A stretch of 63,964 nucleotides of DNA, filler included, from Licmophora abbreviata (lineage: Eukaryota), in NCBI GenBank assembly GCA_900291995.1. It is 6 parts of 6 records of this genome, joined end to end, with 100 filler letters (N's around TTAATTAATTAA, not from the genome) between each part and the next. Parts side by side here need not be neighbours in the genome. Positions count along the whole stretch, not along the records: positions 25,499 to 43,079 come from OLMU01003924.1; 5 more parts are not named here. One strand, given 5' to 3'. How positions within the stretch are numbered: the first letter of the stretch is position 1; every line of letters begins with the position of its first letter. Positions 40,204 through 43,403 of the stretch are shown piece after piece. A model generated the notes under the pieces. It did no database searches. It had not been told where the DNA came from and saw only the letters and a program-made list of their open reading frames with translations. The position numbers and the translations under genes are program-made.

Positions 40204-41301
40204 TTACCAGTTCCATATGATCGGCCGCGTGTAGTTGATGAGGTGGGCAATCTCGTCGGTCAATATTCTTGACGTTTTGAAAAATACAGTTTCATTGATG
40301 GACGGCACTCTTCCTCCGTAATAGTCTTGGAGTCGATGTGTAATCCACACGTCGTCTCCCTCACAGGCCCCCGTGTAGTTGGTGAGAGTGGTATCTCGCA
40401 TAATGCTGCGTACAGCGTAACCCGAATTCATAATATGCTTGCTCATGCCCACTTCGTAGCGTTCAATAATACTCCCCTTATCCCCACCTCCTTTCCGACA
40501 GTCATATACCGCCCCGGATTGCAGGACGAGTTCTATGCCTCGTCGGTCCAGCGCATAGGCAATGCTCTGCACGTGCGGTCTAAAATAGTCTTTCACCGGA
40601 TAACAATTGTGCGACACACCCACCAATCGAACTTTTTCATCGAATCGCTGTAGGAAGGCGTCGGTCCAGTGCGACGTGGGTCCCTCTGGAACCGCCGGTC
40701 CCGACGTCCCACAATTGGCAAACACAAAGTAATCATAGTCGGTCACATTGACTCCCGCCACCTCCCCGCTCATGACCCTTCGGACCGACTCCATATCGTA
40801 ACAGATATTCTCCCGCGTGACCATTTTGACAAAGTGCTCACCACTGCACTTGTAGTCTTGCAGTTCGTCGCGATAGTGCACGTATACTTCGTGCGTCACC
40901 ACCAGTACCGTGTCGTGAGTTGTGCAGTCGACTCCGCCGTGGCGTAGAAAGTATTCGAAATTCTTGAGATAGAGTTCGTTCTTGAGCGCCGGAATGCCCG
41001 TGCCAGTCGTATCGAGCGTTGTGGGACCCGAGTAGACGACCAAAATCTTATTCTTGTTTGTAGAAGTAGCACTCAGCCTTTCGTCCTGTCCCGCCATGAT
41101 ATCGAACAGGCTCATGCCGCGGGTGTCCTCACTGACAGTACCAGTATGGAACAGTAGGGTGCCCCAGGATGCCGGAACGTACGGGAGGAACAAATACACG
41201 AGACCACAGCATAGTACCAATGGGGTATACAGCCGACTTGGGAGTAGAGACTGGCGTCGAGTCACCATCGTGCTGCCTTTACTGCCTCGACCGAAACTCA
41301 T
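40204..41301 (-). CDS. Type II membrane protein, putative glycosyltransferase-like
   Basis: N-terminal TM anchor; motifs RENICYD, DYFVFANCG, PHVQS and YEVGMS resemble rhamnan-synthesis/GT-like proteins. Confidence 0.55.
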   Translation of the reverse strand: MSFGRGSKGSTMVTRRQSLLPSRLYTPLVLCCGLVYLFLPYVPASWGTLLFHTGTVSEDTRGMSLFDIMAGQDERLSATSTNKNKILVVYSGPTTLDTTGTGIPALKNELYLKNFEYFLRHGGVDCTTHDTVLVVTHEVYVHYRDELQDYKCSGEHFVKMVTRENICYDMESVRRVMSGEVAGVNVTDYDYFVFANCGTSGPAVPEGPTSHWTDAFLQRFDEKVRLVGVSHNCYPVKDYFRPHVQSIAYALDRRGIELVLQSGAVYDCRKGGGDKGSIIERYEVGMSKHIMNSGYAVRSIMRDTTLTNYTGACEGDDVWITHRLQDYYGGRVPSINETVFFKTSRILTDEIAHLINYTRPIIWNW

Positions 41302-41628
41302 CCTGCTGTATCATAGAGTATCGGTACGATACGCAAAAGTGTGGTCATCCCGAACGCGAACCAAAGCACAGCAGAACACGAATGGGTGCGTTGGGCGCGC
41401 CTGTGAATATAACCCGGAATTTGAATTGCAACGGCTGGCGGTGGATGATGCGACAATGAGGTCACACGAAATTCTTCGATGTTTGGAGCCAGGCGTCAAA
41501 ACTCATGGATGACTGAGGACTGACTTGACGATGATGGCATCGCCCATTCATTGTCGAATGAAAGAGTCGTCTGATGTCACAGCAAAACGTACTCTGCCGA
41601 AGTAGGACTGTAGTAGATCAGCTGCACT

Positions 41629-42856
41629 ATGTCAGTTGACAGCGCAGCCAACAATACTACTACTACTACTACTACTACTAGTGCTACTAGCAGTACCGCC
41701 ATTACACTTGTCCTACAGCGATTTCGAACTACGCGACTGTTGGTGGTGGTCGATAAACACGACGACGACGACAATGAGCGCACAGCTGTGGTGACAGCTG
41801 GAGAGGATAACGAGACAACAACGGCGGATATCTTGATGAGTCCCAGACCAACCGATGCTTCCTCTGGACTACTGGTATATATTTCCTTTGCCAAGTCTGC
41901 GACTCGGTCCAAAGCGAAACTAGCGGCAAGGACGCTTTTGAATCTGCCACTGCTGACGCAAGGTGTCTGGGGAGATGGCATCAGCGAAACGAACAGTCTA
42001 CTGGATATGGCAAGGACCATGTTCAAAAGTAGTCAATCAATACTACCAAGGAAACGAGGCGTTGCAGTCGTGATTGTCCCGCAAGCGAATGTGATTTGCA
42101 AGGTAGGTACTTCACTAATCACTCTAATGTTTAGATCATCATCATGCGCGGACTGACTTACTCTATCCTGCGTGCATCTTGTAGGTACGGGGTCAAGGCA
42201 AATCCATTCAGTACCACGGTCAGAGTGACAAGAAAACTGGAGAGTCTCTGTATGAATACTTTGTCGAATGCGTCAAGGGCATGGTGCTCTTGCATCAACT
42301 CGAGTTTTTCGAGGACGAACATAAGGATGTACAACAAGTGCCCGACTGGCTCATGGAGTACGCGACAATGGATGAGAAGAACAAGAACAAGAGTGCGACA
42401 GTAGGCAACGAAAGCAACAATGCACAGGTCTCCAGCAGCGTCCCCCCGGACCAACTATTTCGTCAAGACGCCAGCAACAACGACAACAAGTACGCTTCCT
42501 TTGACGACAGGACTGGGTTGCCGCTGACAGACTCACGCGGCGAGCCACTGACCAAGTCGGCCACCAAGAAACTGCGAAAACGAATGGAGGCTCATAGGAA
42601 GCGACATGAAACGTACTTGAAGAAAATGAAAGAGTTTAGCATCGACGATAGTAAGACCAATGATGAGTCGGAGACACCAAAAGAGGAAGCTCAAATTCGA
42701 CTGCCACAATCTTCTCCTTGTATGCAGAATGTCAAAGACAAATGGAGCGCTCTGGATTCATCCTTTATTCATGTCGTTGACGGCTCCTTTGGGAAGCGGC
42801 AGGGATTGGAATTCATGTCGGATATGGGGCCCTTTTGCCATGTCGTGAACGTGTGA
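41629..42856 (+). CDS. DTD2: ATD/DTD2-type aminoacyl-tRNA deacylase with a large internal insertion; intron 42103-42184
   Basis: Motifs LVLQR, GLLVYISF, TLLNLPL, VIVPQANV, SIQYH, GESLYEYFV, GSFGKRQ and GPFCH are colinear with human DTD2/ATD (PQATL, MQYH, GTYGNRQ, GPFTH). Confidence 0.8.
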
Positions 42857-42954: not shown

Positions 42955-42958
42955 TATG

Positions 42959-43040
42959 CGACACGGGCAGGACTCGAACCTACGCGGGATGAACCCAGTG
43001 CATTTCGAGTGCACCGCCTTAACCACTCGGCCACCGTGTC
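42959..43040 (-). tRNA. tRNA-Ser, anticodon CGA
   Basis: Cloverleaf: acceptor GACACGG/CCGTGTC, D-arm TGGCCGAGTGGTTAAGG, anticodon stem GTGCA-CTCGAAA-TGCAC, long variable arm, GGTTCGAGTCC, discriminator G. Confidence 0.96.
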
Positions 43041-43079: not shown

Positions 43080-43179
43080 NNNNNNNNNNNNNNNNNNNNN
43101 NNNNNNNNNNNNNNNNNNNNNNNTTAATTAATTAANNNNNNNNNNNNNNNNNNNNNNNNNNNNNNNNNNNNNNNNNNNN
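43080..43179. other. Artificial contig linker/gap
   Basis: 44 N + TTAATTAATTAA + 44 N. Confidence 0.97.
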
Positions 43180-43403
43180 TTTACCACTCCCTCTACATGT
43201 TGGCCAAGGGTAACCAGTTCAAGAACAAGCGTGTCTTGGTCGACACCATTCACGAGATGAAGTCTGTTCAGGCGCAGGAGAAGGCATTGAAGGAACAGGC
43301 GGAAGCGCGTAAAGGACGCGCCAAGGCTCGTTTGGAGCGCAAGGCGGCGCGGGAAGCCAAGAAGGCGGCCGATGCTGCTGCGGAGGAACAAGCAAGTAGC
43401 TAA
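43180..43403 (+). CDS. RPL19: 60S ribosomal protein eL19, 3' fragment
   Basis: YHSLYMLAKGNQFKNKRVL..IH...EKAL.EQAEAR. Confidence 0.92.

Follow-up and report, generated by a model that had tools for sequence, protein, structure and literature searches.

What does a diatom gene encode when the catalytic fold of a tRNA deacylase is interrupted by a segment that resembles part of an aminoacyl-tRNA synthetase? This question is raised by the locus at 41629-42856 (plus strand) of a 63,964-nucleotide (nt) stretch of Licmophora abbreviata DNA (GenBank assembly GCA_900291995.1), hereafter the window, which an initial annotation had read as the gene for an algal ATD-type tRNA deacylase carrying an inserted module similar to the C-terminal extension of cytosolic cysteinyl-tRNA synthetase (CysRS). 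We found that the locus is an intact two-exon diatom gene, that its core is ATD-type by overall similarity and belongs to the ATD branch, the solved members of which are mouse ATD (also named DTD2) and Leishmania major 1tc5, and that the conserved module of its insertion is, as judged by sequence comparison, a homologue of the very C-terminal end of cytosolic CysRS in eukaryotes. The product is probably a homodimeric ATD-branch aminoacyl-tRNA deacylase in which the CysRS-tail modules serve as accessory tRNA-binding arms.

The spliced coding sequence of 1146 nt specifies 381 amino acids (aa) without an internal stop. Exon 1 (41629-42102, plus strand, as for all features of the gene; 158 aa) starts at ATG 41629, the first ATG of the open frame, encodes first a low-complexity N-terminus and then the N-terminal half of the DTD-like fold, and ends in ...VPQANVICK, being colinear with the N-terminal halves of diatom orthologues. 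An intron of 82 nt (42103-42184), with GT..AG borders, GTAGGT at its start, TGTAG at its end and a CTGAC branch-like site, separates it from exon 2 (42185-42856; 223 aa plus TGA), which begins with VRGQGKSIQYHGQ, encodes the remaining core, the insertion and the C-terminal strands, and finishes in ...DMGPFCHVVNV before TGA. Splicing restores both the frame and the colinearity, and the exon junction is gapless against the orthologues (PQANLISK-VKxQGKSIQYHGQ), which supports the 82-nt intron. Reads of one sequencing run (RNA type guessed; 0.13 of words) gave a single contig of 215 nt at 41841-42055, within exon 1 only, the mapping having passed over 41643-41693 as a repeat. The N-terminal extension of the protein contains a poly-Thr tract, encoded by a run of ACT triplets at 41650-41690.

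The coordinates and motifs of the initial annotation were all present at the locus, including PQANV, DMGPFCH and the quoted stretch VPPDQLFRQ...HETYL (42440-42619). Its placement of the gene in an alga agreed with the first homologue search, in which the five organisms named were all diatoms: Nitzschia inconspicua, Nitzschia sp. Nitz4, Conticribra weissflogii, Mediolabrus comicus and Skeletonema dohrnii. The best match to exon 2 was only 43% identical (BLASTP), indicating that the species itself is absent from the protein collection. In the databases, the orthologues are named 'D-Tyr-tRNAtyr deacylase' or 'hypothetical protein'.

The core was assigned by comparison with solved structures and family models. 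The Pfam Tyr_Deacylase domain, which is divided by both the intron and the insertion, scored 13.7 bits on exon 1 and 17.8 bits on exon 2 against a threshold of 25, and full-length orthologues cleared it at 35-51 bits. When exon 2 was searched with phmmer against all PDB sequences, two chains only were retrieved, namely Leishmania major 1tc5 and mouse 'DTD2' 5xaq, the latter being the protein that Kuncha et al. 2018 (PMC5802732) describe as ATD. When 25 orthologues were combined in a profile, 1tc5 scored 65.9 bits and 5xaq 54.3 bits, compared with 12.1 bits (E=0.82) for 2dbo, the best DTD1 chain. With a profile of 71 orthologues, the scores rose to 70.9 bits (E=1.2e-18) for 1tc5 and 57.7 bits (E=1.2e-14) for 5xaq, and DTD1 chains were absent from the PDB matches at E<=10. 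In the search with the DTD1 equivalog model TIGR00256, two full-length orthologues scored 14.5 and 15.4 bits against a cut-off of 101.5, and neither a third full-length orthologue nor the exons of the window gave a match.

The predicted fold led to the same assignment. As a stand-in for the window's protein at full length, we modelled the orthologue P0004, a complete transcriptome open reading frame (ORF) of 345 aa, with AlphaFold2 (AF2), and obtained a mean predicted local distance difference test (pLDDT) score of 88.0 and a predicted template modelling (pTM) score of 0.73. In the Foldseek search with this model, 1tc5 ranked first (1.8e-10) and 5xaq second (1.7e-9), and the best DTD1 chain was found at 1.0e-6. 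The comparisons of profiles and of the modelled fold placed the core on the ATD side and not the DTD1 side; the profile, Foldseek and TIGR00256 results all favoured ATD, as the initial annotation had supposed from PQANV and DMGPFCH, and the core did not group with DTD1 in either the profile or the fold searches. The nearest Atlas clusters by language-model features were two of diatoms and then one of Euglenozoa, which serves as a lead only.

Next to this overall similarity, the individual motifs of the core form a mosaic. In the description of Kuncha et al. (PMC5802732), ATD is defined by PQATL (motif 1), TNGPYTH (motif 2, given as TNGPY/FTH), a Gln in place of Arg7 of DTD (Gln16 in mouse ATD) and an invariant Arg151 that holds Gly-transPro, and DTD1 bears the signatures SQFTL and NxGPVT, its Arg7 holding Gly-cisPro. 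Motif 1 of the window's protein, PQANV (42079-42093), aligns with PQA(S/T)L of 1tc5 and 5xaq and is of the PQATL type; P, Q, A and N are invariant in the 71 orthologues, the fourth residue being Asn instead of the Thr of ATD. Motif 2, DMGPFCH (42821-42841), which contains the putative cross-subunit Gly-Pro, aligns with GPFTH and GPYTH of 1tc5 and 5xaq, respectively, and has G-P-F-x-H in common with the ATD signature, unlike the signature of DTD1. Among the diatom proteins, the two motifs read PQAN(L/V) and (D)MGPF(C/V)H. The equivalent of Arg151 lies in FGKRQGL (42788-42808), which aligns with GTYGNRQ of 5xaq and GTFGNRQ of 1tc5; its R, nearly invariant in the 71 orthologues alongside an invariant Q and two invariant G, supplies the ATD-specific Arg.

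In addition, the end of strand 1 carries QRFR (aa 30-33; 41716-41727), with a Gln-Arg pair at the putative site of DTD Arg7. The Q, the R and the second R are invariant in the 71 orthologues. The pair was placed in strand 1 on the basis of the AF2 model of P0004 and of the orthologue P0058, in which the match to the Pfam DTD profile starts at profile position 1, five residues upstream of the Q. From these placements we infer the equivalence to Arg7, and the DTD-type Arg appears to be retained beside the strand-1 Gln. With this Arg apparently retained, the diatom core is a mosaic and not a textbook ATD.

With mouse ATD (5xaq), the second-best solved relative by both sequence and fold, the diatom protein shares the DTD-like fold, the PQA of motif 1, Gly-Pro-aromatic-x-His, the Arg151 equivalent in G.(F/Y)G.RQ and an active site predicted to form across the subunits of the dimer. 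It differs from mouse ATD in the insertion before the last strands, in DMGPFCH instead of TNGPY/FTH, in the apparently retained strand-1 Gln-Arg instead of Gln-Gln, and in its host, a free-living photosynthetic stramenopile. The best solved relative by sequence and by fold is Leishmania 1tc5, deposited as 'probable eukaryotic D-amino acid tRNA deacylase' (LmATD), the C-terminal motif of which, G(S/T)FG.RQGL...GPF.H, is nearly identical. With DTD1 (TIGR00256/PF02580), the diatom protein has in common the fold, the superfamily and, apparently, the strand-1 Arg, but PQAN and GPF.H stand in place of SQFTL and NxGPVT.

The insertion (42296-42745; about 150 aa, with approximate boundaries) occupies the loop that leads from the last helix to the C-terminal strands and is a gap in both 5xaq and 1tc5. 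In the alignment with 5xaq, exon-2 residues 2-31 correspond to chain positions 98-128 and residues 188-221 to 135-166, leaving approximately 150 residues without counterpart in mouse ATD, which bears out the estimate of 'well over 100 aa' in the initial annotation. At the same loop, about 30 residues join the last helix to the final strands in 1tc5, whereas mouse ATD has 1-2, suggesting that this loop is a permissive site; the CysRS-like module was not detected in the short loop of 1tc5 when the insert profile was searched against the PDB. Within the insertion, the only conserved part is a module of 69 aa (42434-42640; net charge +6, pI 9.9), about 60 aa of which are homologous to the C-terminal extension of cytosolic CysRS, and its flanks are linkers, variable and of low complexity among the orthologues, that are partly disordered.

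The resemblance of this module to CysRS, which the initial annotation had pointed out, was examined using a profile of 64 positions built from the window and 16 orthologues (17 sequences) and searched exhaustively against 1.84 billion representative proteins. The module has the pattern PP..(L)F(R)...Y.S.D(E)..G.P(LT)...G(EP)LTKS..KKL.K...AH.KRH, and its profile yielded 1095 matches at E<=1e-3, including 179 at E<=1e-10. Below the diatom deacylases in the ranking stood proteins with the match at their extreme C-terminus, such as P0146, matched at residues 791-847 of its 852 aa (E=2.7e-13), and P0155, matched at residues 769-824 of its 826 aa (E=7.2e-13). Among 30 module matches analysed with Pfam, 11 contained the CysRS class I catalytic domain and/or DALR_2 N-terminal to the module, Tyr_Deacylase was present in 10, 8 had no family and the remaining one had a sub-threshold unrelated match only. 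Three clusters are named cysteine--tRNA ligase by their sources (Hymenolepis, Macrostomum and Zancudomyces); a fourth, from the red alga Rhodosorus, is named only for the class I tRNA-synthetase catalytic domain and contains the CysRS-specific Pfam domain. In pairwise comparison by BLASTP, the window's insert was 43% identical to the tapeworm CysRS tail of P0146 over 60 aa (E=3e-13) and 38% identical to the Rhodosorus CysRS over 64 aa (E=1e-10). The profile matches, Pfam domains, source names and pairwise alignments together indicate that this resemblance reflects real homology, and a lack of significant CysRS matches, which would have spoken against it, was not observed.

The elements in common with the eukaryote-specific C-terminal extension of cytosolic CysRS (CARS1) are PP..(F)R, Y..(F/W)D, G.P, G..(L/I)(T/S)KS..KKL.K and KRH..(Y/W)L (E values of 1e-13 to 1e-11), the His of the diatom 'AH.KRH' often being Gln in CysRS. 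The difference lies in the context. In CysRS, the module forms the last 55-65 residues of a synthetase of 680-860 aa, whereas in the diatom protein it is located in an internal loop of a DTD-fold deacylase and not C-terminally after an anticodon-binding domain. The nearest Atlas clusters to the module were short unnamed eukaryotic fragments without Pfam families, again a lead only. A word-index search with the insert for longer proteins gave 24 candidates, none at E<=10, and was superseded by the exhaustive profile search. The sole match of the insert profile among PDB sequences, a flagellar motor component (E=1.6), was at chance level and was rejected.

Modelling of the window's own insert with AF2 (pLDDT 87.1, pTM 0.68) predicted a short helix, a beta-hairpin and a 28-residue helix. 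The hairpin (KYASFDD...GLPLT; 42491-42532) is formed by strands at module residues 20-23 and 30-33, with conserved Y, P and G, and the long Lys-rich helix (TKSATKKLRKRMEAHRKRHETYL...; 42554-42637) covers module residues 41-68. In the module alignment, K41, K45, K49, H54 and H58 are invariant, that is, Lys at i, i+4 and i+8 followed by two His, and on the model these residues would form a basic stripe along one face of the helix. In the model of P0004, the block means of the module were 91-97, and the linker after the module was disordered. Foldseek with the window's insert model against the PDB gave a best E-value of 3.1, and among 48,161 chains compared by VIA-align the highest Z was 4.4, with none at Z>=5; no solved fold thus matched the module in these searches, which does not show that the fold is new. 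As the sole Pfam signal of the module, weak matches to the N-terminal domain of asparaginyl-tRNA synthetase, AsnRS_N (PF20917), recurred on the Lys-rich helix at profile positions 34-77, with 16.4 bits on the window's insert and E<=0.01 for 7 of 43 fragments (best 25.4, below the gathering score of 27). Only the helix aligns, and no relationship to AsnRS_N is established.

Two copies of P0004 were submitted to dimer prediction, which the initial annotation had proposed. The pair passed with a score of 0.80, compared with 0.02 for the best of three controls. Of 30 proteins solved as pairs of one chain, 21 attain the mark for this score, whereas none of 23 proteins solved as single chains does; among eukaryotic proteins 17 of 29 attain it, but only 1 of the 7 without an older solved relative. 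The runs agreed in at least 75% of contacts, with a partner pLDDT of at least 73. The predicted interface consists of core residues only, with zero residues from the insert, and PQAN of one subunit faces GPF.H of the other. DTD and ATD dimers have already been solved, so that the pass may reflect memory; the result shows likeness to these dimers and suggests that the insert need not disturb dimer formation.

The insertion is a constant feature of the aligned diatom enzymes. The survey of orthologues, also suggested by the initial annotation, showed the insert motif in 20 of 20 aligned diatom sequences, and invariant positions also hold across 71 full-length orthologues. The insert-bearing proteins include a Proboscia inermis cluster, Thalassiosirales, Nitzschia and complete MMETSP transcripts; the presence of the insert in complete transcriptome ORFs indicates that it is translated, and not spliced out, in those species. 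Altogether 199 proteins were gathered by the first homologue search and the module profile search, all with the module; both core motifs were found in 92, one in 44 and neither in 63, the last group comprising CysRS tails, fragments and repeat proteins. In two unnamed marine fragments, P0185 (127 aa) and P0162 (167 aa), what comes after the module is an ATD-like C-terminus unlike the diatom pattern, with G.FGGRQG...GPLTH in one and GTFGNRQGL in the other; these fragments may represent insert-bearing ATDs from non-diatom lineages.

A third arrangement was found in proteins without Pfam domains, in which the module is repeated in 3-4 tandem copies, namely P0072 (305 aa; transcriptome of the diatom Dactyliosolen fragilissimus), P0190/P0221 (741/763 aa) and P0132/P0223 (461/714 aa). 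With at least three architectures, the module behaves as a mobile domain. Its history was analysed with two trees, the first built with FastTree from 203 rows and 61 columns, and the second, a quick tree of 85 rows and 62 columns, from 35 of 138 ATD (13 chosen, 22 random), 9 of 9 CysRS, 8 of 8 repeat and 33 of 38 'C-terminal fragment' sequences. Based on labels assigned from motif patterns, the ATD label changed 10 times in the first tree and 6 times in the second, with few supported branches; in the second tree, the non-diatom-like ATD fragment P0162 grouped at 96 with two unnamed C-terminal fragments. These trees settle neither one versus several acquisitions nor the donor lineage.

The reading that we consider probable combines these parts as follows. 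By analogy with ATD and DTD, the catalytic dimer would hydrolyse mischarged aminoacyl-tRNA at the cross-subunit PQAN/Gly-Pro site. The DTD fold touches only the acceptor end of tRNA. The two tethered basic modules may act as accessory tRNA-binding arms that contact the body of the tRNA beyond the reach of the bare DTD fold, and could thereby raise the affinity for tRNA or bias the enzyme toward particular tRNAs. We infer here the binding of tRNA by the module, the substrate, any changed substrate range and the cis or trans state of the Gly-Pro. The proposal of a tRNA arm draws on indirect evidence throughout: the distribution of charge on the module; a published sentence, with Liu et al. 2007 as its source, that ascribes to the C-terminal extension of CARS1 an important part in anticodon recognition (PMC12542199); the general role in tRNA binding ascribed to lysine-rich extensions of aminoacyl-tRNA synthetases (PMC8319005); and the precedent of plant ProXp-ala, described as a free-standing editing enzyme that gained a domain adding tRNA affinity (PMC11295145). 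The likeness to ProXp-ala is one of principle, its catalytic fold being of the unrelated INS/YbaK superfamily and its appended domain being likewise unrelated, and terminal instead of inserted.

A different role for the same homologous module would be that of a protein-docking or localization element, which might anchor the enzyme to a synthetase, to an elongation factor or to the ribosome. The tandem copies in P0072, P0190 and P0223, proteins without other Pfam domains, show a pattern also typical of scaffolds, the module has no fold match that links it to a known RNA-binding fold, and its role within CysRS rests on the one cited sentence of PMC12542199. That sentence, however, is the sole functional statement found for the CysRS extension and concerns tRNA; in addition, the invariant Lys/His stripe on one helix face, in a module with net charge +6, is what is usually seen in phosphate-backbone binding, and the weak recurrent AsnRS_N matches fall on the same helix. 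We therefore regard docking as unlikely. With respect to the core, the enzyme could instead be a DTD1-like proofreader of D-aminoacyl-tRNA or Gly-tRNA, in which the strand-1 Arg would lock the Gly-Pro in cis and the module would boost general tRNA affinity. Such a proofreader is suggested by the invariant strand-1 Q-R and by the role of Arg7 in DTD, and mosaic ATDs of another kind are described from choanoflagellates, with a DTD-type Arg/Lys, a DTD-type motif 2 and no Arg151 (PMC7302879). But the choanoflagellate mosaic with the DTD-type Arg/Lys is reported there to be active on L-Ala-tRNAThr, and the diatom protein has an aligned Arg151 equivalent, PQAN and not SQFTL as motif 1, and profile and fold matches in favour of ATD, which makes a DTD1-like activity doubtful.

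The insertion could also be an annotation artefact, as an unrecognized intron or otherwise retained sequence, or the gene could be a pseudogene. Against this, the frame is open across the whole insert, the module is kept at the amino-acid level in all aligned orthologues, complete transcriptome ORFs included, it folds confidently on its own in AF2, and it is homologous to a bona fide protein domain; an artefact is very unlikely.

Several points weigh against the ATD-branch deacylase with tRNA-binding arms and should be set beside the evidence for it. Motif 2 departs from ATD at three positions (D-M for T-N, and C for T). The Gln-Arg pair is invariant, whereas the exchange of this Arg for Gln is part of the definition of ATD in Kuncha et al. 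2018, and with both types of arginine apparently present, the conformation of the Gly-Pro and the L/D selectivity cannot be read from the sequence. The full-length model is that of an orthologue and not of the window's protein, the two being about 44% identical in exon 2, and the second helix of the helical hairpin in this model is not conserved in the pennate orthologues. Concerning the module, no solved structure resembles it, so that its mode of binding cannot be modelled by analogy, and a segment that is terminal in CysRS is here tethered at both ends and may be constrained differently.

The gene bears on the published origin of ATD, which is presented as an innovation of the animal/choanoflagellate lineage tied to tRNAThr(G4-U69), with the few cases in the protists Leishmania, Trypanosoma, Saprolegnia, Salpingoeca and Acanthamoeba regarded as exceptions or as genes that may have been transferred from hosts (PMC5802732; PMC7302879). 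Neither paper names diatoms in its main text, and the supplementary species list of Kuncha et al. 2018 may contain more protists. Our literature search found no description of a diatom ATD or of this insertion, and one review on tRNA deacylases and ATD mentions stramenopiles for ProXp-ala only. A conserved ATD-type gene in free-living diatoms, from Proboscia to Nitzschia, is at odds with that origin. One possible explanation, which we put forward tentatively and hold to be less than probable, is that diatoms contain an old, lineage-wide ATD clade, related to that of kinetoplastids, which has both of the 'migrating' arginines and captured a mobile tRNA-binding domain, and which was thereby retargeted to tRNAs, or to a mischarging error, other than Ala-tRNAThr(G4-U69); ATD would then be neither an animal/choanoflagellate invention nor a host-to-parasite transfer.

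Model diatoms are transformable and thus offer convenient hosts in which to study the editing targets of ATD-like enzymes outside animals. A synthetase appendage inside the fold of a trans-editing factor is an unusual architecture, and the CysRS tail behaves as a mobile domain in its own right, absent from the models of Pfam and without a solved structure in our searches. The two-arginine mosaic, for its part, bears on the evolution of the Gly-Pro cis/trans switch.

Finally, we inspected the surroundings of the gene. Upstream, on the opposite strand, lies an open frame of 368 aa (40207-41310, minus strand), with no Pfam family at E<=0.01. Downstream, a tRNA-Ser(CGA) gene, the only tRNA gene in the window, is located on the opposite strand at 42958-43040, 102 nt past the stop codon. 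At 43081-43180, runs of N stand on both sides of the literal linker TTAATTAATTAA; this looks like a join, and the sequence beyond it may not adjoin the locus. Right after the N run, the plus strand contains the C-terminal part of a ribosomal protein L19e gene (43182-43400; Pfam Ribosomal_L19e_C, 28.3 bits), the 5' part of which is lost at the gap.

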